DNA from: an uncultured archaeon
GTDB taxonomy: Archaea > Thermoproteota > Nitrososphaeria_A > Caldarchaeales > Calditenuaceae
DNA length: 64,000 bases
Reading direction: 5' to 3'
NCBI GenBank assembly: GCA_938017985.1
Contig: CALIKS010000015.1
Span: 17,017 to 81,016, forward strand
Shown here: piece after piece, positions 10,358 through 24,510 of the stretch
Layout of the letters: each line of letters starts with the position of its first letter
How positions within the stretch are numbered: position 1 is the first letter of the stretch
Position numbers and translations under genes: made by a program
Notes under the pieces: model-generated
What the model saw: the letters and a program-made list of their open reading frames with translations, nothing else
Database searches by the model: none
What the model was told of the DNA's origin: nothing

Positions 10358-10744
10358 ATGGGCAAACAAGTAATATTCAGTGAAAAAGGTCCTAGGCCAC
10401 TCGGAGCTTATTCTCAAGCCATCCGCGCCGGCGACTTCATATTCGTGGCAGGCATGGGTGGGATAGACCCATCGACAGGACAGATGGTTAAGGGTGGAAT
10501 AAGAGAACAGACAAGACGAGCGATAGAGAACATAAAAGCAGTACTAGAATCTGTGGGAGCATCCCTCAATGATGTGGTCAAAGTGACTGTCTTCTTAGCG
10601 GATCCAGAAGATTTTAACGATATGAATGAAGTTTACCGAGAGTATTTCAAAGAGAACCCTCCGGCGAGAAGCACAGTTGCGGGCAGAATTCCCGGAAAGG
10701 ACTTCCTAATCGAGATAGACGCAATAGCCTACATTGGAAAATAG
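10358..10744 (+). CDS. ridA: RidA/YjgF-family reactive enamine/imine deaminase
   Basis: 128 aa. [28 protein letters not shown]...PARSTVAG...EIDAIA is typical of RidA. Confidence 0.9.
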
Positions 10745-10811: not shown

Positions 10812-11894
10812 ATGAATAAACTAGAAATTGACACACCAGCCATAATAGTTGATTTTGACGTCATGATAAGAAACATAAGAGAGATGGCTAAGCTTGCTAA
10901 AGACCGGGGCGTCAAGCTGAGAGCGCACATCAAGACGCATAAGGTCCCAGAGATCGCGAAGATACAGCTTGAAGAAGGCTCAAGAGGCATATGCGTTCAA
11001 AAAGTAGGCGAAGCAGAAGTAATGGCTAATGAAGGAATAAACGACATATTCATAACAAACGAGGTCGTAGGAGATGTAAAGATAAAGAGACTCGCAAGAC
11101 TCGCTGAGAAAAATAAATTATTTGTAGCTGTTGATCATCCAGAGAATATAAAAAGCTTATCAAGAATAATGAAGGAGAATGGCGTAGAGCTAGGAATATA
11201 CATAGACGTTGACTGCGGAATGCACCGGACCGGCGTTCCATCGACGGAGGCTCCTGAGCTTGCAGAACTCATAACCCGCAGTGAAGGGCTTTACCTAAAA
11301 GGCGTCATGGGTTATGAAGGACATGCAGGGGCACCGCTAAAAAAAGAAGAGAGACAAAAACTCACAGAAGAAGCAATGAAGACGACACTCGAGGCAGTAA
11401 ATCTAATCAAGAAAGCAGGGATAGAAGTCGAGGAAGTAAGTGTAGGTTCGACCCCAACCGTCTGGTACAGCTCCTCTTACCAAGAGGTAACAGAGATACA
11501 GCCTGGAACATACGTATTCAATGATTACTACCTAGTCGATAGAGGAGTAGTCACTATTGAGAGATGCGCACTACACGTACTAGCAACAGTCATGAGTCGA
11601 GCAGCACCTGACAGAGGAGTAATAGACGCGGGCTCCAAAGCATTCCAACTCGACATGAATAAATATCCAGTAGCTCTCGGCATGGAGGGTGTAGAAGTCG
11701 TAAAGTTTTCAGAAGAGCATGGATGGTTAAAAATAACGGGCGAAGCACAAAACAAAATAAAGCTGGGAGACAAACTAGAATTCATACCATACCACGTATG
11801 CACCTGCGTCAACCAATTCGACACAATGTACATAATAAGAAACGACAAAGTAGAACGAGAATGGCAAATAAAAGCACGCGGCAAAATGGTCTAA
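10812..11894 (+). CDS. DSD1-family PLP enzyme (D-serine dehydratase / D-threonine aldolase-like, alanine racemase N-terminal fold)
   Basis: 360 aa. LRAHIKTHKVPEIAKIQL carries the PLP lysine in the HxKTHK context. It is followed by GICVQKVGEAEVMA and the C-terminal HGWL...PYHVCTCVNQFD. Confidence 0.75.
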   Translation: MNKLEIDTPAIIVDFDVMIRNIREMAKLAKDRGVKLRAHIKTHKVPEIAKIQLEEGSRGICVQKVGEAEVMANEGINDIFITNEVVGDVKIKRLARLAEKNKLFVAVDHPENIKSLSRIMKENGVELGIYIDVDCGMHRTGVPSTEAPELAELITRSEGLYLKGVMGYEGHAGAPLKKEERQKLTEEAMKTTLEAVNLIKKAGIEVEEVSVGSTPTVWYSSSYQEVTEIQPGTYVFNDYYLVDRGVVTIERCALHVLATVMSRAAPDRGVIDAGSKAFQLDMNKYPVALGMEGVEVVKFSEEHGWLKITGEAQNKIKLGDKLEFIPYHVCTCVNQFDTMYIIRNDKVEREWQIKARGKMV

Positions 11895-11930: not shown

Positions 11931-12818
11931 TTATACAACTACGGTTCCTGGATCTATGATTTTTATACTAGTTATGTAGCGTTGTAACACAGCTGCAACC
12001 AGTATTGCTGGAGTAATATTTGTCATCATTGCTGCAGCAGCCATAGAAGTCTCGACCGTAATGTTTTGGAAGAATGTTGTTAAGAATGGGGTGAATGGTT
12101 GCACCTCTGCTCCGCCTGATAGTAACATCCCATATAAGAACTCATTCCAAGAATACAGAAACGTTAGGATTGAAGTAGACGCAATGGCGGGCATCGCTAA
12201 AGGAATTGCAACTTTTGTAAATGTCGAAAACCTTCCACACCCATCAATTCTCGCTGACTTCTCAAGATCTGTTGGAAGAGTTGCAAAATAACCCATCAAT
12301 ATCCATGTCATCAACGGTATCGTTATTGTGAGATGTACCAAGATTAATCCAATGTACGTTCCTCTCAGCCCAGTCATTACGTAGAATGCATAGAAAGGTA
12401 CAAGTAAGCTGACTGGAGGAATCGTCCTCGAGCCGAACAATATCGCTATTAATGCATTCTTAGCCTTAACTCTATATCTCCCTAACACATATCCAGCTGG
12501 AACTACTACAGCAGTAGTAATAATGGTCACTGGCACTCCAATGATGGCTGAGTTAATCATTCCCCTTATTAATTCTCTATATTGTCCCGCTGGTCTAAGC
12601 GGGTTTCCCATCGGGTCAACCGCGCTGTATCCAAAGATCCTCATATAATTAGCAATTGTCGGGTCGTTGGGTATTAATGGGCTTGGAATCCTGATTACAT
12701 CCTTAGGCCAGCTAATCGACACTATGAATATATAATATATCGGCCCTAAACTATAGAATGCAACTAAAATTAGGGCGAGGTAAACCAAATATTTTGATGG
12801 CCTAGCCATACCTATCAC
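11931..12818 (-). CDS. carbohydrate-type (CUT1) ABC transporter permease
   Basis: 295 aa and polytopic, with the EAA loop EKSARIDGCGRFSTFTKVAIPLAMPA. Confidence 0.88.
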   Translation of the reverse strand: MIGMARPSKYLVYLALILVAFYSLGPIYYIFIVSISWPKDVIRIPSPLIPNDPTIANYMRIFGYSAVDPMGNPLRPAGQYRELIRGMINSAIIGVPVTIITTAVVVPAGYVLGRYRVKAKNALIAILFGSRTIPPVSLLVPFYAFYVMTGLRGTYIGLILVHLTITIPLMTWILMGYFATLPTDLEKSARIDGCGRFSTFTKVAIPLAMPAIASTSILTFLYSWNEFLYGMLLSGGAEVQPFTPFLTTFFQNITVETSMAAAAMMTNITPAILVAAVLQRYITSIKIIDPGTVVV

Positions 12819-12820
12819 CC

Positions 12821-13705
12821 TTAATATTGCATCACTCTCCGCCTCTTACTTATGACTATGAAATAACTCGTGATTGCTATGATCAGGCCAACCATTAATA
12901 GCCAAGATCCAGCAGCGCCATAACCAAGGTCTAGTCCTCTAAAGAATACCTTATAGATATAGAAAGTTATTGTCTGGGAGCTAGTTCCGGGCCCTCCCCC
13001 AGTCATCACGATTATCATGTCTGCTGTTCTTGCTGACTCTATAGTCGCAATTATTCCAGTCATTATGACGGCATACCTAATGAAGGGCAACGTAACCACT
13101 CTGAATCTCGTGAAGAAGCTTGCCCCATCTATCTTAGCTTGTTTATTAAGATCTTCAGGAATAGTTTGCAGTCCTGCTAGAATGAAGAAAATCCCTAGCG
13201 GTGCAAGATGCCATGCATACATAAAGGCCAGAAGCTCAACTACGTATGGAGAGCCTAGAAAATCGATGTATCTTTCTATTAATCCAAGCCTGTAAAGAAT
13301 TGCATTTACGAATCCATAGCTTCCATTAAACAAGTATCTTCCAGCAGTAGCCGTCGCAAATTCAGAGAGAGCCCAAGGCATTATGACAATAACTCTCATA
13401 ATTGATTGTCCAGTAAATGCTCTGTTTAGGAGTAGTGCTATAGATATGCTTAGAACTAAAACCATTATCGTAGAATCTATGACAAATCTTATAGTTACCA
13501 TGGTTGCCTCAACGTAAGATTTATCACTAAATAACTTAAGATATTGAAGCCCACCGACGGGTTCAAATTTGTTTAAAAATAGGTTGATATCGTGAAAGCT
13601 AAGATATAGAGAATAAGCCATCGGATAGATGCTTAGACCAAAATTCAAAATAAATAATGGAGTTAAAAGAACTATTGCTACCTTTGTGTCTGTCCACCTA
13701 ACCAA
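12821..13705 (-). CDS. carbohydrate-type (CUT1) ABC transporter permease
   Basis: 294 aa and polytopic, with the EAA loop NKQAKIDGASFFTRFRVVTLPFI. It lies 2 nt from the next permease. Confidence 0.88.
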   Translation of the reverse strand: MVRWTDTKVAIVLLTPLFILNFGLSIYPMAYSLYLSFHDINLFLNKFEPVGGLQYLKLFSDKSYVEATMVTIRFVIDSTIMVLVLSISIALLLNRAFTGQSIMRVIVIMPWALSEFATATAGRYLFNGSYGFVNAILYRLGLIERYIDFLGSPYVVELLAFMYAWHLAPLGIFFILAGLQTIPEDLNKQAKIDGASFFTRFRVVTLPFIRYAVIMTGIIATIESARTADMIIVMTGGGPGTSSQTITFYIYKVFFRGLDLGYGAAGSWLLMVGLIIAITSYFIVISKRRRVMQY

Positions 13706-13714
13706 CTATTGTTT

Positions 13715-15271
13715 TCACCCATGATATTTCTTCCAGAGCTCATCTGCGATCTTCCGCATCTCAGACACTGCCTCACGTGGCGAAATCTCCTGTGCAAGAC
13801 ACTTAGCCATGAGGTCGGGCGCTTTAACCATCCACTCACCGTATAAGGGCGATCTCCATATCCATGGAGCTGCCATAGTCTCTAACCATTTCTCAGACCT
13901 TTCAGCCGTTTCTTTTGTCTTTGGCCCGAGTCTAGCCTCCCAGGCTCTCTGTACGTCGGGGTCTCTTAAAACTGCTGGGTAGGCCGTATGTAAGAATTCT
14001 TCTTTTGCCCATTTATATGCTGAAGTGTGTTTCCCTTCGTTGTCTTTGTAACCAAACCAGAGTATGAGTCTTGCGGACCTGTCAAAATCATGATTATTCT
14101 TTGGCCAGCAATAAAGTCCAGTGTCTATAACGCCCAGCGCTTCTTCTACTACGGGTACCAACGTGGCTTTGCCAGCTATTCTAGACTTTGCCGGGTCCAT
14201 AGTGTTCCAGTATCCATACAAACCGTTGAGCCGCCCAAATGCGTAGCTTCCCGTCCAGAACGCCTCAGTGCCCACCGTGTCTGAGGAGGCTGAGATCACT
14301 GCCCTCTCAACGAGGTCTTCATCGACAAGCTTCCTCCAGTCTGATACGGTTTCATATACTGTATCACCTGGCGCCGCATCAAAAGTAGGAGCAAAGTCTT
14401 TACCGAACATTGATTTAGTCAGGTCTGGGTCCTTCGCCCTGCCTGCCACTTCTGCTAGTAAGGACCACACTGTACCCCAGAATGCATTGAACCAGTGTGG
14501 AACAAATGGTTTTATCATGCCCTCAGGAGCTCTCTGCTTTATCTTCCTCAGCATGTCATAGAGTTCTGCATGACTTCTTGGTAATTCACCAGCCATTCCT
14601 GCCTTTTCGAGTAATTCATCATTGGCAATGAGTGCTGGTGTAGCTGAGACGAAGTATGTTAGCCCGGCTAGTCTGCCTTGCTTATCGCTGTAGGCTCGTT
14701 TAACGCTCTCAAACATTTCTGCCTTTACCCATTCTATGTGTGGTAGTTCCTCAGCTGAGTTTGTAAAGCCTAGCTCAATCCATCTAAATGCCATGAATGC
14801 GTTGCCATAAACCATGTCGAATTTCTCCCCTGCCAGGAACTTTGTCTCTACCATTCCCTGATAGTCGGGACCCGTTATTTGTTCCTGCTCTAAGTTCTCA
14901 TTATTCTGTCTCATGAATATCTCTATATTTTCTGTAATTATGTCTGGTCGATATCCCCAGTGAACCCATTTAAGCGGCACCGCTGGTTTTACCGGCTCAG
15001 GCTTCCAAGGCGGCCATGCAATAGTGGGCGTTGTTGGTGGAGTTGTTACGGTTACAGGGCCTGTAACAGTCACAGTCCTCTCGACCGTCTTCTCTACAGT
15101 CACTGTCGCGCCCGGTGCAGTTACTGTCCTCTCAACGGTCCTTACTGGAGCAGCTGCTGAACCTACTAAATAACCTCCCGCACCGGCTACAACACCTGCC
15201 ACTACTACACCGATTGCCACTTTGCCAGCAGTGGATATTGCTTTCCTACGTGAAATTTTATTCTCAACCAT
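13715..15271 (-). CDS. ABC transporter extracellular solute-binding protein (family 1) with N-terminal anchor and Thr/Val-rich linker
   Basis: 518 aa. It has an N-terminal TM/signal segment (AIGVVVAGVVAGAGGYLVG) and the repetitive linker VERTVTAPGATVTVEKTVERTVTVTGPVTVTTPPTTPT. It is first in the operon with the two permeases. Confidence 0.8.
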   Translation of the reverse strand: MVENKISRRKAISTAGKVAIGVVVAGVVAGAGGYLVGSAAAPVRTVERTVTAPGATVTVEKTVERTVTVTGPVTVTTPPTTPTIAWPPWKPEPVKPAVPLKWVHWGYRPDIITENIEIFMRQNNENLEQEQITGPDYQGMVETKFLAGEKFDMVYGNAFMAFRWIELGFTNSAEELPHIEWVKAEMFESVKRAYSDKQGRLAGLTYFVSATPALIANDELLEKAGMAGELPRSHAELYDMLRKIKQRAPEGMIKPFVPHWFNAFWGTVWSLLAEVAGRAKDPDLTKSMFGKDFAPTFDAAPGDTVYETVSDWRKLVDEDLVERAVISASSDTVGTEAFWTGSYAFGRLNGLYGYWNTMDPAKSRIAGKATLVPVVEEALGVIDTGLYCWPKNNHDFDRSARLILWFGYKDNEGKHTSAYKWAKEEFLHTAYPAVLRDPDVQRAWEARLGPKTKETAERSEKWLETMAAPWIWRSPLYGEWMVKAPDLMAKCLAQEISPREAVSEMRKIADELWKKYHG

Positions 15272-15449
15272 ATCTCTTCACTCATTAATACAACTGCCAC
15301 TTATATATATTTTTTGTTAAGTTTATTTTTAACATTAATCTTATTGTTGGAGAATATTTAGATGATGTGTAGCATTTTTATCATTATTTCTAGAACAGCT
15401 AATGTAGTGTTGATGAAGCTTTATTAAATGGCTCTAATAAATTAAGCCG

Positions 15450-16502
15450 ATGAGTTTTTCCCCTGTAATAATTGATCTGCATGAAGATATTTCGTATTAC
15501 TACGTACATGGGGCTAGTGGTTTAGAGTTTGGTTTGGAGGAATTTGACAAAGACATGCAGGGTAGGCATGGCGATATTCCGAAGTTCAGGAAGTCTAGAG
15601 TCGCTATTGTCTTTTCTTCTGTTTTCTGCTTGCTTTCTACTATATCGCCCAGAATAAGTGAGCAGCTGACAAAGGGTTACGATGAGAAGGCAATTCGAGC
15701 GTGGGTTCCAAGGGCTACTCACTCGACATCTTTAGAACATTTAAAGGTATACTATAGATTGGTCGAACTATATCCACGAGACTTATCTATAATACTTACG
15801 AGAGAAGATGTGCAGAGAGCAATTGGTTTAGAAAAGATTGGATTCTTATTGGCTCTTGAGGGCGCCTACATGTTAGAGGACGTCGATGACCTAAAGCTCT
15901 ACTATAACATGGGCATTCGGAGCCTTCAGCTCTTATGGAACTTTGACTCTAGGTATGGTGCGTCATGCATGTCTACTAAAGACTATGGATTAACAGGCGA
16001 GGGTGAAGAGCTGGTAAAAGAAGCGAATAGGCTCGGAGTAATTATTGATTTAGCACATGCGAGTAAGAACACCCACATAGATGTCTTAAATCTCTCAAGG
16101 CTTCCAGTGATAAACAGCCACTCAAATGCAAGAAGACTCAAAGACGTGCCTAGGAACCTAGATGATGAGACGCTTGAAGAGTTTAAGAAGAAGAGAGGAG
16201 TGGTCGGATTCATATTTGGAATGATAGGAGGTAACGAAGACATTAATTCGTTAGCAGACCAGGTTATGTACGTCTATCAAAACTTTGGGCCTGACGTAAT
16301 GGCTATTGGGACTGACTACTTTGGGCTCATCGATGGAAAGGCGCCAAAAGGACTTGAAGACATAACAAAGATACCAAAACTATTCGAGATATTGCTGGAC
16401 AGGGGATTAAAAGAGTCAGACATAGAAAAATTAGCATACAAAAACGCATTAAGAGTCATTGAGGAAAATGCAGCGAATTGGAAAGTTCATACGCACATTT
16501 AA
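15450..16502 (+). CDS. membrane dipeptidase (peptidase family M19)
   Basis: 350 aa. Motifs VIIDLHEDISYY, IIDLAHASKNTHIDVL, NSHSNAR and GTDYFG match the renal-dipeptidase fold. Confidence 0.82.
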   Translation: MSFSPVIIDLHEDISYYYVHGASGLEFGLEEFDKDMQGRHGDIPKFRKSRVAIVFSSVFCLLSTISPRISEQLTKGYDEKAIRAWVPRATHSTSLEHLKVYYRLVELYPRDLSIILTREDVQRAIGLEKIGFLLALEGAYMLEDVDDLKLYYNMGIRSLQLLWNFDSRYGASCMSTKDYGLTGEGEELVKEANRLGVIIDLAHASKNTHIDVLNLSRLPVINSHSNARRLKDVPRNLDDETLEEFKKKRGVVGFIFGMIGGNEDINSLADQVMYVYQNFGPDVMAIGTDYFGLIDGKAPKGLEDITKIPKLFEILLDRGLKESDIEKLAYKNALRVIEENAANWKVHTHI

Positions 16503-16505
16503 GGG

Positions 16506-17657
16506 GTGATTAAAAGTTTGGGTTTAATCGAAGAATTAGGCTTGAAACCAATTATTAACGCGGCGGGCAACTTAACCGTCATAGGAGGTACAACGCTGGA
16601 AAAGGATGTCATAGAGGCAATGATGGAGGCGTCTAAGATTTTTCTTGATATGAACGAACTACACATCAAAGCTGGACAATACATTGCCAATCTGATAGGA
16701 GTTGAAGATGCTTACATTACCTCTGGCGCAGGAGCGGGAATCGCGCTCTCGGTAGCCGCCTGCATAGTCAGGGATAGGCCTGATAGGATTGGAACATTTC
16801 CGCATGTAGATGATTTAAGACATGAAGTCATAGTCCAGAAAAAACATAGAAACCTTTACGACTACATTATAGAGATTCCCGGCGCAAAAATAGTTGAGAT
16901 TGGTAATGATGTGGAGACCACGGAGGACGATTTGCAAAATGCGATAAACGATAAGACATGCGCAGTAATGTACTTTGTATTTGAGTCTCGGGAAGGAGTG
17001 TTGCCGCTAGATAGAGTCATAGAAATTGCACATAGTCACGGATTGCCAGTAATAGTTGACGCAGCCGCAGAGGTTCCTCCTCGAGAAAATCTTAAAAAAT
17101 TCTATAATATGGGAGCGGACTTGATACTTTTCAGTGCTGGCAAAGATATAGGTGCCCCTAATGATACGGGAATAATTCTTGGCAGGAGAGAACTGATTCA
17201 GCTCTGCAGAAGGCTCGGACCACATAGTTATGAAAAAGTAGACGATAAGACAAGGATTTACTTGGGGAGACCAATGAAAACAAGTAAGGAAGACATTTTA
17301 GCAGTCGTAGCTGCTGTCAAAAAATATCTAAGCATAAACGAAGAGGAAAGAATACAAAAATGGGAAAATAAGGCTGAGTACATATTCTCAGAATTGATTA
17401 AGAAAGGCATAAAAAACATAAATAAAATTTATCCAAAAGGTTTTGGACATCCAAGGCCTGCTTGCGTACCACGAATAGAGATTACTCCACCTCCATATTC
17501 GAATGTTGATGAATTATTAAGAGATTTACGAGAGGGCGAGCCGCCTATATATGCTTATGATTTTAATGGAAAGCTTTACGTAAGTCCTCAGTGTCTCAGG
17601 GATGGTGAAGAAAAAATTGTTGCTAAGAGATTAATAGAAATCTTAAAACAAAAATGA
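16506..17657 (+). CDS. SelA/DgaE-fold PLP-dependent enzyme (D-glucosaminate-6-phosphate ammonia-lyase-like), paralog 1
   Basis: 383 aa with a GTG start 4 nt after the dipeptidase stop. Motifs are PIINAAGNLTVIGGT, ITSGAGAGIALSVAAC and the PLP-lysine context FSAGKDIGAPNDTGII. Confidence 0.75.
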   Translation: MIKSLGLIEELGLKPIINAAGNLTVIGGTTLEKDVIEAMMEASKIFLDMNELHIKAGQYIANLIGVEDAYITSGAGAGIALSVAACIVRDRPDRIGTFPHVDDLRHEVIVQKKHRNLYDYIIEIPGAKIVEIGNDVETTEDDLQNAINDKTCAVMYFVFESREGVLPLDRVIEIAHSHGLPVIVDAAAEVPPRENLKKFYNMGADLILFSAGKDIGAPNDTGIILGRRELIQLCRRLGPHSYEKVDDKTRIYLGRPMKTSKEDILAVVAAVKKYLSINEEERIQKWENKAEYIFSELIKKGIKNINKIYPKGFGHPRPACVPRIEITPPPYSNVDELLRDLREGEPPIYAYDFNGKLYVSPQCLRDGEEKIVAKRLIEILKQK

Positions 17658-17663
17658 ATAAAT

Positions 17664-18692
17664 CTATTCACTTTCTTCTTTAAAATATGGAATTATTTTT
17701 GTTTTGAAAATTCTGAGCATTCTGTTGACGTTGTCGCTGAAATCACCCCATATTACTTGGTTTACTCCTAATTTTCTGAACTTGTCTATATTCTCGATGA
17801 TGTCTGCACCAGTCTCGCTTATGCACATGCTTCTCATTATCTGTTCATCATCAATCTTTTTGGCAGCTTCTAATATCTTTCGGGGATCAGGCTCATTAAA
17901 CATCTCCTTTAAGCTCGCACCGGCTATGTATGTCTTTATTCTTTTGACTACATTTTTAGGGTCGCCTATGCCTCCACCTATCGAGACTGCCTTTTCTACG
18001 ATTGCAGGGTTTCTTCCGGCTTCTCTAGCACCTTTTTCAAAGTTTGGCAAGATAGTAGAACTATATCTCTCAATGTTAGCTACAGTCATCAGTCTATCGG
18101 CATATTTCCCAGCCATGTATGCACTCTTCTCTCCCATCGCTGAGAAATAGATCGGGATATCGGTCTTCGGCTTCAAGTATAGAAAAGCCATAGGCATCTT
18201 GAAGTATTTCCCCTCAAATTTAAAAAAGTCTTGTTCATGAAACAACTTCTTAATCAGATCTATCCCTTCTATTAGTCGTTCTATACGTTCCTCCCATTTG
18301 GGCCAAAATCCAAGGAATGGCTGCTCATTCATTGCCTCTCCGGATCCTACACCAAGCAAAAACCTTCCCGGAAACATCACGTCTATCGTAGCGCTAGCCT
18401 GAGCAATCAATGCAGGATGATACCTACCTCCAATCGGGACCGTAACTGCTACACCTCCCTTAATTGATTTTGTCCTCGATAATACAATAGGCAGTAACGA
18501 CCAAACATAAAAATTATGTCTAAAAGAGTGATGCCAAGGATAAAAATGGTCGCCAAGCCATAATGCATCAAAACCAGCTTTCTCCATCCTCACGAGATAC
18601 CTAAGAGAATATTCCTCATCGAAAAGCAATGTAAAAGAAGCATCTATTCCGATCTCAAATTTTTTTACAGCCATTTCATATTCAAAATACAA
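17664..18692 (-). CDS. LLM-class (luciferase-like) flavin/F420-dependent oxidoreductase
   Basis: 342 aa. AGFDALWLGDHFYPWHHS, GVGSGEAMNE and the TIM-barrel length resemble the F420-dependent G6PD-like subfamily. Confidence 0.78.
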   Translation of the reverse strand: MYFEYEMAVKKFEIGIDASFTLLFDEEYSLRYLVRMEKAGFDALWLGDHFYPWHHSFRHNFYVWSLLPIVLSRTKSIKGGVAVTVPIGGRYHPALIAQASATIDVMFPGRFLLGVGSGEAMNEQPFLGFWPKWEERIERLIEGIDLIKKLFHEQDFFKFEGKYFKMPMAFLYLKPKTDIPIYFSAMGEKSAYMAGKYADRLMTVANIERYSSTILPNFEKGAREAGRNPAIVEKAVSIGGGIGDPKNVVKRIKTYIAGASLKEMFNEPDPRKILEAAKKIDDEQIMRSMCISETGADIIENIDKFRKLGVNQVIWGDFSDNVNRMLRIFKTKIIPYFKEESE

Positions 18693-18732
18693 TTTAAGTA
18701 TTTAAATCTAAACTATATCCTACTCTAACCTT

Positions 18733-19578
18733 TTATAATTTGCCAAATAATTTAACTGGATTTTCATATATTATATTTTTTATTATGTTTACTGGAATTT
18801 TTGGTAGACTTGTTCTTCTAACGATTTTATTTAGTTTTAGTAGGTCGCTTATTGTTTTTTCAGGAGTACTAAAGGGAAAGTCAGTACCGAATAATAATTT
18901 ATCGGTTATGCGATACTCCATGCAGGTCATGAGCTTATGGTATAACCTAAACGGACGGGACGTTAAAGTTGAAATATCAGCCCAAACATTTGGGTGTTTC
19001 CTCACTAATACAATTGCCTCGTCTTCCCATGGATGTCCCAAATGAGCAAGAATAATTTTTAGGTCACTAAAATTAGTAGCGACGTCATCGAGGAGAGATG
19101 GATAGGCATACTTAAGAGGCGCTCTTCTAATAAAAGTAGTAGCTTGATGAATCAAGACTGGTATCTCGAGCTCTTGGGCCAATTCAAATAATTTATATGC
19201 CCTGTCAGAATTTGGGTCAAAGTTTTGATATATTGGTGATATTTTTAGCCCTTTCATATGAAGATCCTGTATACATTTTTTAAGTTCAGCAGTTGCGTCT
19301 GGCTGATTTGGATCAATACAGCAAAACCCGATTAGTTTATCGGGAAACTTATCGACATATTCAGCTACGTATTCATTAGGGACATTGATTTTGAGAAAAA
19401 GGCTCTTGAATGCTAGTACAATTGCTTTGTCAACTTTAGACATAGCTTTTTCGTGTACTTCAGGGGTTGCTTTTAGCGACTCTATACTTCCTCCCCAGAC
19501 CCTTGAGAAATCTGAAATCATTTCTTGTCCTAAGTGCTTATCGACATCCCAAACATGTGTATGACAGTCAATGAGCAT
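18733..19578 (-). CDS. amidohydrolase-2 family metal-dependent hydrolase
   Basis: 281 aa. The pattern is MLIDCHTHVWD (HxH), ILAHLGHPW and GTDFPF. Confidence 0.8.
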   Translation of the reverse strand: MLIDCHTHVWDVDKHLGQEMISDFSRVWGGSIESLKATPEVHEKAMSKVDKAIVLAFKSLFLKINVPNEYVAEYVDKFPDKLIGFCCIDPNQPDATAELKKCIQDLHMKGLKISPIYQNFDPNSDRAYKLFELAQELEIPVLIHQATTFIRRAPLKYAYPSLLDDVATNFSDLKIILAHLGHPWEDEAIVLVRKHPNVWADISTLTSRPFRLYHKLMTCMEYRITDKLLFGTDFPFSTPEKTISDLLKLNKIVRRTSLPKIPVNIIKNIIYENPVKLFGKL

Positions 19579-19684
19579 AAAATAATCATATTAGTTCACT
19601 ATTTATCAATTACCAAGTTACAAGACAATAAGCTTTGAAATTTTTAACCAACTTAATCAAAAAACTTATTTACCATAACAACTA

Positions 19685-20815
19685 ATGTACAACGAGATTG
19701 ATATGAGTATTTTACAATCTCTCGGAGTTAATAGAGTAATAAATGCTGCGGGTGCAGAAACACCATTAGGGGGTAGTGTATTGCCCCTTGAAGTAGTAGA
19801 GGCAATGCGTGAAGCCTCCTTTATTTTTTTGGATATGCATGAATTATTGCATAAAGCTGGGAAAAGAATTGCCGAATTATTAGGAGTTAAGGCTGCCTTC
19901 ATTACTTCAGGAGCTGCTGCTGGGCTAACGATCTCTGCAGCCGCATGTATCGCGGGGAAAGATGTTGCGAAGATTAAAAAGCTTCCATTGACGGACGACA
20001 TGAAAAATCAAATCATAGTACAGAGATCTCATAGGACCGTCTTTGATCATGCATATATGATGGCTGGTGCGAGATTAGTTGAGATCGGCAAACCATCAAT
20101 CTATGATAAGAAAGAGATAGAAGGCGCGATTAATGATAAGACTGCAGCAATTGCTTTTACGGTCTCTGGTAAAGGAATAGTGAAGTTAGAAGATTATTTT
20201 GATGTAGCCAGACATTATGGGGTGCCCTTGATTGTCGATGCGGCACCGGTCATTCCACCAATATCTTATCCTAGAGATCTCTGTAAAAATGCTGATTTAG
20301 TAGTCGTAAGTGGTGGCAAGGCCCTAAGGGGACCTAATGATTCTGGAATCATATGTGGCGAGCCCGAGTTAATTGAAGCATGTGCCCTTAATGCGCATCC
20401 CAACTTCGCAGTTGGAAGACCAATGAAAATAAGCAAGGAACAGATAGTAGGATTGGTCGCAGCAGTTGAGTTGTATGTAAAGAAAGACGAAAAAGCAGAA
20501 ATAGAGAAGTGGAACAACGCACTTAAAAAAATTTCAGAAATCCTTGACTCAGTACCAGGATTTGATAAGAGGATAGTTTTTCCAGACGAATTACAGAGAC
20601 CAGTGCCGAGGCTTCATATTAAGATAGGACGAGGAAAAGTATGGAAGGTCATTGAAATGTTGCAAAAAGTCGAGCCGAAGATTTTTACAGCCGATTACTT
20701 AACCATGGAATATTATCCAGATTGGTTAGTCCTTGACCCGACGACTCTACTCGAGGGCGACGACGAGATAGTGGCGAATAGATTATTAGAAATTTTAAGA
20801 ACATTGGAGACTTAA
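19685..20815 (+). CDS. SelA/DgaE-fold PLP-dependent enzyme, paralog 2
   Basis: 376 aa and colinear with 16506-17657. Shared motifs are VINAAGAETPLGGS, ITSGAAAGLTISAAAC and VSGGKALRGPNDSGII. Confidence 0.75.
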   Translation: MYNEIDMSILQSLGVNRVINAAGAETPLGGSVLPLEVVEAMREASFIFLDMHELLHKAGKRIAELLGVKAAFITSGAAAGLTISAAACIAGKDVAKIKKLPLTDDMKNQIIVQRSHRTVFDHAYMMAGARLVEIGKPSIYDKKEIEGAINDKTAAIAFTVSGKGIVKLEDYFDVARHYGVPLIVDAAPVIPPISYPRDLCKNADLVVVSGGKALRGPNDSGIICGEPELIEACALNAHPNFAVGRPMKISKEQIVGLVAAVELYVKKDEKAEIEKWNNALKKISEILDSVPGFDKRIVFPDELQRPVPRLHIKIGRGKVWKVIEMLQKVEPKIFTADYLTMEYYPDWLVLDPTTLLEGDDEIVANRLLEILRTLET

Positions 20816-20818
20816 TCA

Positions 20819-21934
20819 ATGAACGGGATTAAACTGAAGATTAGAGATATTGAAGTCATTCCTGTAAATGTTCCAATAGATTTCTATTATGCTTCATCGC
20901 TTGGTATTAGGGGACAGTCAGAATTTATAATAATTAGAATTACATCTAGTGACGGTCTCGTCGGCTATGGCGAGGCTAGCTTAGAACATAATTGGCTTGA
21001 AGGCGAGACACAAGCATCTGTGAAGGTGGCCGTCGAAAAATACATATCGAAATTTTTAGTCAACGAAGAGATTAAGAGTTTGGCTTTGACGTTGTATCAG
21101 ATAAATAAAGCAATAGCCGGCAATTTATACGCAAAGTCATCGATTGATATTGCTCTTCATGATCTTGTTTGTAAATACTTGGGAATTCCTTTATTTGATT
21201 ATTTAGGAGGCAAGATAACGGACGAAATTCCCGTAAAATTTAATATTCCAATAACAAAGACTGAGGAGGTTGTTCGTCTCTCCAAATTTGCCAAAAATAA
21301 AGGATTTAAGACTATAAAGTTAAAAGTAGGGCTGGATGAAAAATTAGACATACAAAATGTTGAAAGTATTAGGTCAGCTGTTGGAACAGATGTATTGCTA
21401 GGAGTAGATGCAAATGGTGCTTGGCGACCTAAACAAGCTGTTAAAATAATTAAAAGAATGGAGGATTTTGACCTTTTATTCGTTGAGCAACCAGTCCCAA
21501 GGTGGGATATAGATGGTTTATCCTACGTCTCAAGGAATGTAAACGTACCTATTATGGCTGACGAAAGTATTGCTACGCCAAGTGATGCAATTAATTTAGT
21601 GAAAAAAAATGCAGCAGACATGTTTAGCGTCTATATCGGCAAAGCAGGCGGAATAAACGAGGCTCGAAAAATTATAAACATCGCGGAGAGCGCAGGCATT
21701 CAATGTACATTGGGAAGCAACATTGAGTTAGGTATCGGAAATTCGGCAAAGCTGCATGTTGCAGCCTCGTCATTTAACATAACTGTAGCGCCTGATATAG
21801 CTCCATGGTTTTATACAGAAGACGTTATTAGCCCTCGCCTTGAATGTGAAGATGGGAAAATAAAAGTTCCGAAAAATGTTGGACTAGGGATTAGAGTTGA
21901 TGAAGATAAAATCGAGAAATACCGAGTTAACTAA
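20819..21934 (+). CDS. enolase-superfamily enzyme, MLE subgroup (dipeptide epimerase / N-acylamino acid racemase-like)
   Basis: 371 aa. It has the KxK motif in FKTIKLKVG, metal ligands in GVDANGAW, FVEQP and IMADES, and a second catalytic Lys in VYIGKAGG. It starts 3 nt after the upstream stop. Confidence 0.82.
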   Translation: MNGIKLKIRDIEVIPVNVPIDFYYASSLGIRGQSEFIIIRITSSDGLVGYGEASLEHNWLEGETQASVKVAVEKYISKFLVNEEIKSLALTLYQINKAIAGNLYAKSSIDIALHDLVCKYLGIPLFDYLGGKITDEIPVKFNIPITKTEEVVRLSKFAKNKGFKTIKLKVGLDEKLDIQNVESIRSAVGTDVLLGVDANGAWRPKQAVKIIKRMEDFDLLFVEQPVPRWDIDGLSYVSRNVNVPIMADESIATPSDAINLVKKNAADMFSVYIGKAGGINEARKIINIAESAGIQCTLGSNIELGIGNSAKLHVAASSFNITVAPDIAPWFYTEDVISPRLECEDGKIKVPKNVGLGIRVDEDKIEKYRVN

Positions 21935-22044
21935 TTGTTAAAGAATCTTGCGGTAAATAAATTATAGAACGAAGATATATTAACTATCTTCAAGCATTAA
22001 TTACCCTTATATATAAGATGCGGATTATTATTGGCGAGGGATAA

Positions 22045-23136
22045 ATGGTAGTAGTCAAATTGGAAAATCTCACAAAAAAATTTAGAGATTTAGTTGCGGT
22101 AGATAATGTAAGTTTAGAGATTAAGGATAAGGAATTCTTCGTCTTTCTTGGGCCTTCGGGTTCTGGTAAAAGTACGACTTTGAATATGATTGCAGGGTTA
22201 GAAGAGCCGACATCTGGCTACATATATTTTGACGGGCAAGTAGTGAATGATGTTCCGCCTGAGAAACGAGATGTAGCTATGGTTTTCCAGACATTTGCCT
22301 TGTATCCCCATCTGAATGCTTTTGACAATATTGCCTTTCCGCTTAAGGTTAGAAAATATCCAAAAAACGAAATCAGGAATAAGGTGATTCAGGTCGCCGA
22401 GATGCTCAAGATTAAACATCTTTTAAGCAAAAAACCATACGAGATGAGTGGCGGGGAGCGTCAGAGAGTGGCGCTAGCAAGGGCAATCGTGAGAGAGCCT
22501 AGGCTATTCCTACTCGATGAGCCATTATCCAACATCGACGCAAAGCTAAGAGTATACATGAGAGCAGAACTGATCCGGCTTCAGAAAGACCTAGGAATTA
22601 CGACGATTTATGTCACGCATGATCAAGTAGAGGCTATGACTATGGGTGACCGAGTAGCAATAATGAACTGGGGCAAGGTCATGCAAATTGGTTCACCGAT
22701 TGAGGTTTTCAGAAAGCCTGCTAATCTGTTTGTCGCCGGATTTATAGGGACACCTCCAATGAACTTTTTCGAATGTAGTTTAAAGACGAATGGCAAGAAC
22801 ATACTGGAATGCGGTCATTTCAATCTATCAATTGATAAAAGCATTGCAGACGTGATTAAACAAAATAGTAGTGGTGATGAGTTAGTTTTAGGCATAAGGC
22901 CAAATGAATTAAGGGTTACGAATGAAAAAATCTCGGAGGACAGCTTCCAGTCAGAGATATTTGCAGTCGAAAACCTAGGAACAGAGAGTATTGTAAACTT
23001 TAAACTAGGTGATAACATATACAAAGCAGTTGTTCCAGGAGTAATATACTATAGCTTCGGACAGAAGGTTTGGATTACTGTTAATAAGGAGGCAATACAT
23101 ATATTTGATAAAAAATCAGAAAAAGCAATAATCTAA
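22045..23136 (+). CDS. sugar-type ABC transporter ATP-binding protein (MalK/UgpC-like)
   Basis: 363 aa with Walker A GPSGSGKST, signature MSGGERQRVALARA, Walker B LFLLDEPLS, and a C-terminal regulatory/TOBE-like domain. Confidence 0.92.
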   Translation: MVVVKLENLTKKFRDLVAVDNVSLEIKDKEFFVFLGPSGSGKSTTLNMIAGLEEPTSGYIYFDGQVVNDVPPEKRDVAMVFQTFALYPHLNAFDNIAFPLKVRKYPKNEIRNKVIQVAEMLKIKHLLSKKPYEMSGGERQRVALARAIVREPRLFLLDEPLSNIDAKLRVYMRAELIRLQKDLGITTIYVTHDQVEAMTMGDRVAIMNWGKVMQIGSPIEVFRKPANLFVAGFIGTPPMNFFECSLKTNGKNILECGHFNLSIDKSIADVIKQNSSGDELVLGIRPNELRVTNEKISEDSFQSEIFAVENLGTESIVNFKLGDNIYKAVVPGVIYYSFGQKVWITVNKEAIHIFDKKSEKAII

Positions 23137-23148
23137 AGTCAAAGAATA

Positions 23149-24369
23149 TTATTGGTTCGTTTTTAACTCGTTTATTATAGTTTTAATCCATGAGAAAATT
23201 GTCTTCGGTGTCCATCCATAATTGTATAGGGCTATGCCGTCGGCTCCTCCATTGATCGCAGACTTTATACTCATTGATAGATTCTCTTTTGTATAGTTTA
23301 TAGGGTAATTTGTCCTAATTGAGGGGATGATCATGCATTTTTTATTAATCATATTCTTTAAAGACTTAACATAATTTTCTATTCGTCTGGGGTTCTCGAA
23401 ATAACATATATAATCAATAGCGTCTATGATTTTGCTAATTTTTTCGAAGTTGAAGCCCTCATTCAACCACATAGTGGCTCCAGATATGATACTTATCCTT
23501 ACTTTTTTATTAAAGGACCTTACATTTTCACGTATCTCTTGGAGCATATCTAGGCTTGTATATGATTTGAACTCGGCTAGATGTCTCATAGTCTCGTTAA
23601 ACATTAAGTATTCATATAATGAAGAGGCTACATCGCTTTCAGGAATGCCTGGGTAGAGGTCGGGAGAAACATTCATTATTTCTGATATTATTTCACGTGC
23701 TTTATTTTTAGCGGCTGAGAGGTTTATTCCGTACTCTTTAGCTTTTGCTTCACAGTGCTGACAATAACAGGTTGAGTATAGATACGAGAGTATGGGATGT
23801 ACATATACCCCGAATGTTTCATGATGATCAAAGTGTTGTAGTCCCCATGGAAAGGCTACTGATTCAAGTTGAATAAAATCGAGGTCATAACTACTTGCTA
23901 GGTTGCAGACAAGCCCTGTTATGTATCTTCTTGCATCAGGATTATTCGGACACATGAAATTTTCATCAATATTTCCGAATGGATCTTGAACAGCAACGTC
24001 AGGGTTTTGCCTTACTAGCTCATAGTTATGTAGACATACTGTCCATGAATTTACCCTTAAATCGTAACTCTTTGCATACTCAGTCGCGATTTTTAACACG
24101 TCATAGTCTATGTATTTTTGTGACCTCCTAGGCTTTAGTTTTGTATTCGTGAAGAACTCTGATAAAGGTTCAAAGTATATTACTCCCTCTTCAGCAAAGT
24201 ATACGAGTTTTTTTGGATTATGAGGGAGAATGTATCTTCCGCAATGGTAACTGGTGGCTATATTAATGTGTGATAATCCCATCTCGCTCATTGTGTTCAT
24301 AACTTTCTCAGCTCCCTCATCGATTAAATCCCATGGATGTAGATACATTGAGAAATAATCATTGTTCAT
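23149..24369 (-). CDS. hypothetical protein, possibly a TIM-barrel glycoside-hydrolase-like enzyme
   Basis: 406-aa ORF. YLHPWDLIDEGAEKV...LSHINIATSYH and alternating beta/alpha-like segments suggest a TIM barrel. This is weak recognition only. Confidence 0.45.
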   Translation of the reverse strand: MNNDYFSMYLHPWDLIDEGAEKVMNTMSEMGLSHINIATSYHCGRYILPHNPKKLVYFAEEGVIYFEPLSEFFTNTKLKPRRSQKYIDYDVLKIATEYAKSYDLRVNSWTVCLHNYELVRQNPDVAVQDPFGNIDENFMCPNNPDARRYITGLVCNLASSYDLDFIQLESVAFPWGLQHFDHHETFGVYVHPILSYLYSTCYCQHCEAKAKEYGINLSAAKNKAREIISEIMNVSPDLYPGIPESDVASSLYEYLMFNETMRHLAEFKSYTSLDMLQEIRENVRSFNKKVRISIISGATMWLNEGFNFEKISKIIDAIDYICYFENPRRIENYVKSLKNMINKKCMIIPSIRTNYPINYTKENLSMSIKSAINGGADGIALYNYGWTPKTIFSWIKTIINELKTNQ

Positions 24370-24510
24370 AATTTTTCTAGAAGATAAGCAATACTTAAGC
24401 GTGCTACCTCTAAATTAAGATATTATTATGTATGTTTGTATATAGCTCTCTATATTTTTTTGATTTGATGGGGTTGGAAAAATTTATTAATTCGGTAAGT
24501 AAGCGATTCA

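Follow-up and report, generated by a model that had tools for sequence, protein, structure and literature searches.

Two diverged DgaE/Cap15-branch paralogs in a sugar-importer island of a Nitrososphaerota genome: possible ammonia-lyases for free amino-sugar acids

The stretch of 64,000 nucleotides analyzed here (the window; positions 17017–81016 of contig C15) comes from a 1.63-Mb, 83% complete metagenome-assembled genome of Nitrososphaerota (G000) and carries two paralogous genes, designated Dga1 and Dga2, whose products are fold-type-I pyridoxal phosphate (PLP) enzymes of the DgaE/Cap15 branch. Both proteins keep the PLP lysine of this family, lack the phosphate-binding arginines (all except one) and the histidine pair of DgaE, and fall into separate clades, and a two-gene module that includes Dga2 is present in some close relatives and absent from others. 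Our preferred explanation, which is held tentatively and a little below even confidence, is that they are ammonia-lyases in a route that starts from an N-acyl amino-aldonate and resembles the bacterial Ong pathway, where Dga2 would serve a parallel branch.

In public records hundreds of archaeal and bacterial relatives of these proteins are called “selenocysteine synthase” or generic aminotransferase. We are aware of an established function for only two proteins of the DgaE/Cap15 branch. What we know of the family, its type of reaction, and the logic of the pathway comes from bacteria, and we know of no characterized member from archaea or from either of the two clades. The motif loss, together with recurrence beside deacylase, RidA, and sugar-type oxidoreductase genes, leads to a testable function, which is deamination of free amino-sugar acids. 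If true, this would provide a candidate for the missing step by which archaea use amino sugars from chitin or glycans while bypassing the classical route of kinase and deaminase. The two genes are as follows.

16506–17657, plus strand: Dga1, DgaE/Cap15-branch fold-type-I PLP enzyme of 383 aa; PLP lysine K213 (codon 17142–17144); broad archaeal clade
19685–20815, plus strand: Dga2, its paralog of 376 aa; PLP lysine K212 (codon 20318–20320); rare clade with an LTMxYYPDW insertion

Family and fold of the paralogs

An earlier reading of the window, made from the sequence alone (the sequence-only reading), had described the two open reading frames as colinear and only moderately similar members of the SelA/DgaE fold, and the alignments bear this out. 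The paralogs align over the full length (Dga1 residues 5–381 versus Dga2 residues 7–372) with 39% identity, 60% positives, and an E value of 1e-80 in BLASTP, and the shared blocks quoted in that reading are all present in both proteins, namely IINAAGNLTVIGGT, YITSGAGAG, IVDAAA, and SAGKDIGAPNDTGII in Dga1 and VINAAGAETPLGGS, FITSGAAAG, IVDAAP, and SGGKALRGPNDSGII in Dga2. The lysine of the (S/G)GK block, which had been presumed to bind PLP, occupies the position of the PLP lysine in Salmonella DgaE, Cap15, and Aquifex SelA and does not vary across 64 aligned family members, where it is part of an S-x-G-K motif (K213 in Dga1 and K212 in Dga2). In public gene calls the start of Dga2 is placed at the second ATG (19703), which gives a product of 370 aa.

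Both paralogs align end to end with the DgaE-family model TIGR01437 (selA_rel) and weakly with the SelA model. In the former, positions 3–362 of 363 are covered with 221 bits for Dga1 (E 2.5e-65) and 215 bits for Dga2 (E 1.4e-63), both under the 385-bit cut-off; the DgaE equivalog model NF047797 gives 181.4 and 192.1 bits, respectively, and its cut-off of 600 is not reached. The nearest solved structures by sequence are 8t7j (Cap15) and 7lc0 (Salmonella DgaE). The AlphaFold models are confident (pLDDT 93.8 for Dga1 and 91.4 for Dga2), and their superposition gives for both paralogs template-modeling (TM) scores of 0.85–0.90 on Cap15, 0.80–0.85 on DgaE, and about 0.6 on SelA. Dga1 and Dga2 belong to the DgaE/Cap15 structural branch.

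Active site and substrate class

The substrate of DgaE is D-glucosaminate-6-phosphate, the phosphate of which is placed at Arg301, Arg332, and Arg346, while the pair His162/His163 shows strict conservation in DGL, with His163 as the proton donor for C3 (Phillips et al., PMC9529869). In the 64-sequence alignment Arg301 is the only phosphate-binding arginine that is kept in both paralogs. Dga1 has Tyr in place of Arg332 and Gln in place of Arg346, Dga2 has Ala and Thr at these positions, respectively, and the His162/His163 columns are gaps in both proteins, with FESREG as the flank in Dga1 and VSGKG in Dga2. These replacements extend throughout both clades, and the two histidines are missing from every member. 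The Dga1 clade is marked by the signature PR(V/I)E...Y...NPQCL and the Dga2 clade by VPRLH...(A/L)D with the inserted LTMxYYPDW...IDPTTL. In DgaE numbering Dga1 has Glu303, Tyr332, and Gln346, and Dga2 has His303, Asp333, and Thr346.

The simplest reading of these residues is that there are two subfamilies with different substrates, which would be unphosphorylated because the phosphate-binding arginines and the His pair are lost in both clades; the same loss fits import by an ATP-binding cassette (ABC) transporter rather than by a phosphotransferase system (PTS). Where the sequence-only reading had suggested phosphorylated and free amino-sugar acids alike, the free acids stand as the better guess, and the phosphorylated ones are disfavored by the missing arginines. 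Despite the same fold and length, a full-length alignment at 28–31% identity, and the kept PLP lysine and Arg301, the paralogs thus differ from DgaE in the replaced histidines and arginines and in scores far below the equivalog cut-off, and they differ in setting as well, with no PTS or DgaF aldolase and with ABC import accompanied by M19, LLM, and Amidohydro_2 genes in an archaeal host. The reaction type is probably shared, that is, beta-elimination of a D-configured 2-amino-3-hydroxy acid.

Gene island and its counterparts elsewhere

The paralogs are part of an island of transport and enzyme genes, which includes the following members.

10358–10744, plus strand: RidA, Rid-family enamine/imine deaminase (TIGR00004, 136 bits, above cut-off)
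10812–11894, plus strand: fold-type-III PLP enzyme of the OngC superfamily with Ala_racemase_N and D-ser_dehydrat domains, beside RidA
11931–15271, minus strand: CUT1-type sugar ABC importer (permeases 11931–12818 and 12821–13705; 518-aa binding protein 13715–15271)
15450–16502, plus strand: M19 “membrane dipeptidase” family hydrolase of the amidohydrolase superfamily (PF01244, 260 bits), putative N-acyl-D-amino acid deacylase
17664–18692, minus strand: LLM oxidoreductase of the F420 glucose-6-phosphate-dehydrogenase/alcohol-dehydrogenase group (PF00296; TIGR03557, 178 bits), convergent with Dga1
18733–19578, minus strand: Amidohydro_2 metal hydrolase (PF04909), putative lactonase; absent from one congener (G327)
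20819–21934, plus strand: enolase-superfamily enzyme, MLE subgroup; 3 nt lie between the Dga2 stop and its start
22045–23136, plus strand: ABC ATPase of the importer, MalK/UgpC/GlcV type; the enzyme genes lie between it and the permeases
23149–24369, minus strand: 406-aa protein with a weak, sub-threshold match to GHL10 (glycosyl-hydrolase-like), syntenic in the genus

The arrangement agrees with what had been described from the sequence, including the LLM and Amidohydro_2 genes on the minus strand between the paralogs and the 3 nt from the Dga2 TAA (ending at 20815) to the ATG of the enolase-superfamily gene (20819), except that the M19 gene, which is indeed close to Dga1, is separated from it by 3 nt and not by 4 (TAA ending at 16502, Dga1 GTG at 16506). 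Relatives of the M19 protein in the Protein Data Bank (PDB) are GliJ, Sco3058, and renal dipeptidase, and the best PDB match of the LLM protein is the F420-dependent alcohol dehydrogenase 1rhc (216 bits). The importer permeases are most similar to GlcU/GlcT, UgpA/E, and MalG, the binding protein is weakly matched to carbohydrate-binding MsmE, and the GHL10-like protein has no PDB sequence match. The DgaE operon contains a mannose-type PTS (DgaABCD) and the KDGP aldolase DgaF, whereas no PTS or aldolase is found among the annotated window genes from 8.8 to 28.8 kb.

Neighbors of the family were counted within 4 kb at 16 loci elsewhere in the phylum and within 1.5 kb at about 55 metagenome loci. 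In the first set the most frequent are Amidohydro_1/3 (7 loci) and Gfo/Idh/MocA (6), followed by the enolase superfamily (4), RidA (3), AOR (2), and PfkB (2); the Amidohydro_1/3 genes match PRK09237 “amidohydrolase/deacetylase” above cut-off and are directly adjacent to the family member in 6 of the 16. The metagenome loci repeat this picture with Amidohydro_1/3 in 13, RidA in 8, and Gfo/Idh/MocA in 7. Judged by gene families, a recurrent triad can be recognized that consists of an oxidoreductase, an amidohydrolase-superfamily deacylase, and a lyase with RidA, and it appears to match the logic of the Ong pathway.

Proposed route

The Ong pathway for oxidized chitin in Pseudoalteromonas prydzensis has been experimentally established and includes the deacetylase OngB, the PLP deaminase OngC, the RidA protein OngD, and KdgK (PMC9537276). 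Since the recurrent triad corresponds to this established system, an Ong-like function is proposed for the island of the window, which would hold a counterpart of each Ong role, including RidA and, at superfamily level, the adjacent fold-type-III gene for OngC. It is also in favor of this proposal that both characterized relatives, DgaE and Cap15, act on sugar-borne beta-hydroxy-alpha-amino acids and that the importer belongs to the CUT1 sugar type.

We infer the substrates, the order of steps, the cofactor, and the product of the route as follows. Dga1 and Dga2 would be cytoplasmic PLP-dependent alpha,beta-eliminating ammonia-lyases acting on unphosphorylated D-configured beta-hydroxy-alpha-amino acids, most likely on 2-amino-2-deoxy-aldonates such as D-glucosaminate. 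The sugar-type ABC importer would take in an (N-acyl) amino sugar or a glycoside of it, the LLM oxidoreductase would then oxidize C1, probably with F420, and the Amidohydro_2 enzyme would open the resulting lactone, a step that may be dispensable when hot, which fits the absence of this gene from the congener G327. Among M19 enzymes of bacteria the preference is for a D-residue in the C-terminal position, and because an N-acyl amino-aldonate presents such a residue, the M19 hydrolase may handle it as an N-acyl-D-amino acid and take the N-acyl group off. Dga1 would form the external aldimine on K213, eliminate the beta-hydroxyl, and release an enamine, which RidA would help to convert to 2-keto-3-deoxy-aldonate and ammonia. 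Dga2 with its enolase-superfamily partner would be an accessory parallel branch that extends the route to a stereoisomer or a related acid, and the partner could epimerize C2 because such an enzyme abstracts the proton alpha to the carboxylate.

In its most developed form the proposal is a phosphorylation-independent, F420-linked oxidative amino-sugar pathway in heterotrophic hot-spring Nitrososphaerota, with intracellular synthesis of an aminoaldonolactone by the LLM enzyme, a recruited M19 deacylase, and two lyases that lead from different stereoisomers to 2-keto-3-deoxy acids, one of them coupled to a C2 epimerase. We consider this complete version possible rather than probable; if true, it would give archaea a non-orthologous equivalent of the Ong and Dga routes of bacteria. 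In the searchable literature we found no description of the family together with an M19 enzyme, an LLM enzyme of the F420 type, and an enolase partner of the MLE type.

The likeness to the Ong pathway consists in deacylation of an N-acyl amino-aldonate followed by deamination without phosphorylation and with the involvement of RidA. The components differ: the Ong deaminase is of fold-type III and not DgaE-like, the Ong deacetylase is a D-aminoacylase where the window has M19, and the Ong acid is made outside the cell by a lytic polysaccharide monooxygenase, while here the putative oxidant is the intracellular LLM oxidoreductase. Also, there is no KdgK or PfkB kinase in the island, although PfkB genes occur elsewhere in the genome.

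An archaeal parallel is found in the chitinase clusters of haloarchaeal Natrarchaeobius, where genes for a sugar dehydrogenase, a RutC/RidA protein, and an enolase-type dehydratase accompany a DgaE homolog, and a route from GlcNAc via GlcN and glucosaminate to KDPG is predicted (PMC12343721). That route is predicted only and assumes phosphorylation of glucosaminate by an unknown kinase, and it differs from the island in its NAD(P) glucose dehydrogenase, CE14 deacetylase, and single lyase copy (PMC12343721).

Several observations weigh against the proposed route. M19 enzymes are known as dipeptidases, and beyond this genus the neighbor survey showed none of their genes beside a family member; the enolase-superfamily gene has its nearest match in an L-Ala-D/L-Glu epimerase, and one metagenome context has a peptide flavor, with S66 LD-carboxypeptidase, M20, Opp, and M19 genes. 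Neither a KDG kinase nor an aldolase is encoded in the island, the sole DHDPS-family protein of the genome is below the cut-offs for DapA and for archaeal KD(P)G aldolase, and the putative lactonase role of the Amidohydro_2 enzyme derives from family membership only. In G327 the binding protein and permeases (L054:11778-15034) are 42–46% identical to those of the window (11931–15271), whereas the flanking enzymes and MalK are 75–92% identical and an extra 555-aa open reading frame follows the importer cassette; the cassette therefore appears to have been exchanged, and the importer may not be tied to the enzymes.

A search of the 83% complete assembly of G000 did not reveal CofD or CofH, although at least 6 LLM paralogs are present there. 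This absence was first read as evidence against an F420 enzyme, and that interpretation was dropped because CofD is above cut-off in 4 of 4 relatives, which makes an assembly gap the probable cause.

Competing functions

The strongest competitor of the amino-aldonate route is salvage of D-amino-acid peptides, which we regard as a serious, if minority, possibility. According to this explanation the enolase-superfamily enzyme would epimerize a dipeptide, the M19 hydrolase would free D-Ser, D-Thr, or another D-amino acid with a beta-hydroxyl from the C-terminus, Dga1, Dga2, and the fold-type-III enzyme would convert it by dehydration and deamination to a 2-oxo acid, and RidA would clear the enamine. 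The dipeptidase family of the M19 protein, the peptide-flavored metagenome locus mentioned above, and an M24 Xaa-Pro-type peptidase nearby are in line with this, as is the best PDB match of the enolase-superfamily protein, B. subtilis L-Ala-D/L-Glu epimerase YkfB (208 bits). In comparison with YkfB this protein keeps the KxK motif, the second Lys, and the D/E/D metal ligands (IKLKVG, IGKAGG, VDAN, VEQP, and MADES), but the DxD motif after strand 8, which we take to bind the N-terminal ammonium group of the dipeptide in dipeptide epimerases, is lost: RFDFDAP of YkfB corresponds without gaps to VAPDIAP, with Asp321 replaced by Pro and Asp323 by Ile. Against peptide salvage it also counts that the importer is of the sugar (CUT1) type and not Opp/Dpp, that the LLM oxidoreductase and the Amidohydro_2 enzyme are left with no role, and that peptidases are not among the recurrent neighbors of the family at about 70 loci. 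The two explanations may be close at the level of substrates, since OngC deaminates D-Ser and D-Thr too (PMC9537276), and amino-aldonate and D-hydroxy-amino-acid specificities can therefore overlap.

A different PLP chemistry on a beta-hydroxy-alpha-amino acid, such as oxidative decarboxylation with O2 as in Cap15, retro-aldol cleavage, or transamination, which would perhaps serve the synthesis of a specialized metabolite, is improbable. It is suggested by Cap15 (PDB 8t7j), an O2- and PLP-dependent monooxygenase-decarboxylase whose substrate, 5'-C-glycyluridine, is a sugar-borne beta-hydroxy-alpha-amino acid, and which is the closest solved structure for both paralogs (31–32% identity and the highest TM scores); also, both paralogs are under the family cut-offs. 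Cap15 keeps all three arginines equivalent to the phosphate-binding set of DgaE and belongs to the gene cluster of the antibiotic capuramycin. Against such a chemistry it counts that Cap15 is placed in the tree, together with DgaE, outside both clades, that no biosynthetic genes are present in the island, that its importer and hydrolases make a catabolic setting, and that the family is repeatedly found next to RidA, an enzyme acting on the enamines formed by eliminations.

The Dga2-enolase module among close relatives

Returning to the ammonia-lyase proposal, the sequence-only reading had left two options for the paired copies, parallel branches or two consecutive steps, and the gene content of close relatives favors the former. 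In the congener G327 (L004/L054) the series M19-Dga1-LLM-MalK is found without Amidohydro_2, Dga2, and the enolase-superfamily gene. The congener G345 (L005/L062) has the full gene set, where an intact Dga2 lies beside an in-frame 276-aa remnant of Dga1 (L062:12498-13328, minus strand), in which 34 residues take the place of residues 119–254, so that the PLP lysine is missing.

A third arrangement is found in the same assembly as the window, on the 13.7-kb contig C72, which carries a colinear copy of the island (compare window 11931–23136) with 80–88% DNA identity and is either a segmental duplication that has since diverged or a related population caught in the same bin. It contains the permeases, the binding protein, M19, Dga1, LLM, Amidohydro_2, and MalK without Dga2 and the enolase-superfamily gene, and its Dga1 copy, the third family member of the assembly, is 83% identical to Dga1 in amino acids. 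At the site that holds Dga2 and the enolase-superfamily gene in the window, between Amidohydro_2 and MalK, there is a 461-bp non-coding insert (C72:11834-12294) with 12-bp terminal inverted repeats (AGCGTGTCTAAA and TTTAGACACGCT) and an internal direct repeat (GTCTAGAATAGATATTA), which looks like a miniature inverted-repeat transposable element (MITE). In the metagenome relative L017 the Dga2-enolase pair is immediately followed by fragments of insertion sequences (IS).

Dga2 and the enolase-superfamily gene are an accessory two-gene module, as the pair is absent from G327 and C72, with the MITE-like element at the corresponding site of C72 and the IS fragments in L017. At least one intact family member is kept in every relative examined. 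The absence of the module from G327 and C72, together with the internal deletion of Dga1 in G345, which has the module, is easier to reconcile with branches that run in parallel or can replace each other than with two consecutive steps that are both obligatory. A Dga2 relative at 51% identity has no enolase neighbor, and the coupling of Dga2 with the enolase-superfamily gene is therefore lineage-specific and not clade-wide. The paired copies, with one module gained or lost among close relatives, are a natural experiment on substrate specialization.

The GC content of window positions 15272–24510 is about 0.38–0.40 versus the contig average of 0.44, which is consistent with an accessory or acquired block.

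The same variation could be explained if the two copies were functionally redundant, a mobile Dga2-enolase cassette having been inserted into an existing island and one copy being lost, although we give this little credence. The variable presence of the module among congeners, the internal deletion of Dga1 in G345, and the mobile-element traces at or beside the module in C72 and L017 would all be expected in such a case. On the other hand, the two copies of the window are intact and share no more than 39% identity, they belong to clades with different conserved pocket signatures, and a second genome of the phylum also keeps two diverged copies in one cluster. In that genome (G105, from another family of the phylum; contig C2, L051:7630-12213) an independent pair of DgaE-like paralogs, 52% identical, is divergently oriented and flanks an MBL-fold hydrolase and a PRK09237 deacetylase-type amidohydrolase.

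Evolution of the two clades

The family is carried by 21 of 401 sampled genomes of the phylum. The Dga1 clade (100% SH-aLRT) is broad, with 27 sampled rows whose members are 45–80% identical, and spans several archaeal lineages, including Nitrososphaerota, “Thaumarchaeota”, and Caldivirga records. The Dga2 clade, also with 100% SH-aLRT, is rare, and only 11 sequences of more than 50% identity were obtained from a collection of 5.8 billion proteins. The suggestion that the duplication is old or the copies were separately acquired agrees with this result, since the position of each copy in its own well-supported clade indicates an ancient split. In the quick tree Dga2 is placed beside another group; in the AU test a clade that joins Dga1 and Dga2 remains compatible with the data (p 0.52), so duplication and separate acquisition are not told apart.

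The selenocysteine question

That the paralogs are selenocysteine synthases or other tRNA-dependent SelA-type enzymes, as the names of relatives (“L-seryl-tRNA(Ser) seleniumtransferase” in many public records) and Pfam SelA matches of 30–32 bits might suggest, is so improbable that this candidate was rejected, in agreement with the sequence-only reading: the SelA model TIGR00474 gives 52.1 bits for Dga1 and 40.8 bits for Dga2 versus the cut-off of 267.9, and the likeness to SelA (PDB 3w1h) is confined to the core fold and the PLP-lysine motif, at about 20% identity and a TM score of about 0.6 against 0.80–0.90 for DgaE and Cap15. The alignment with Aquifex SelA begins at SelA residue 68 (383 and 376 aa in the paralogs versus 452 aa), which means that the tRNA-binding N-terminus is absent from both proteins. 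No selenocysteine (Sec) machinery was found in the genome, within the limit of its 83% completeness: aragorn identified no tRNA-Sec among 36 tRNAs, SepSecS had no match (PSTK was not searched), and SelD and SelB were represented by sub-threshold paralogs only, with best scores of 58.8 bits versus a cut-off of 125 and 155 bits versus 242, respectively.

Related loci in the same genome

In three loci of G000, which are C31 (2.5–7.8 kb), C16 (1.6–6.8 kb), and the window itself (17664–21934), LLM paralogs that are 33–37% identical lie within a few kb of enolase-superfamily paralogs that are 26–28% identical, a proximity that we count in favor of the proposed route. This recurrence hints at repeated modules of a dehydrogenase with an acid-sugar enzyme in this genome.

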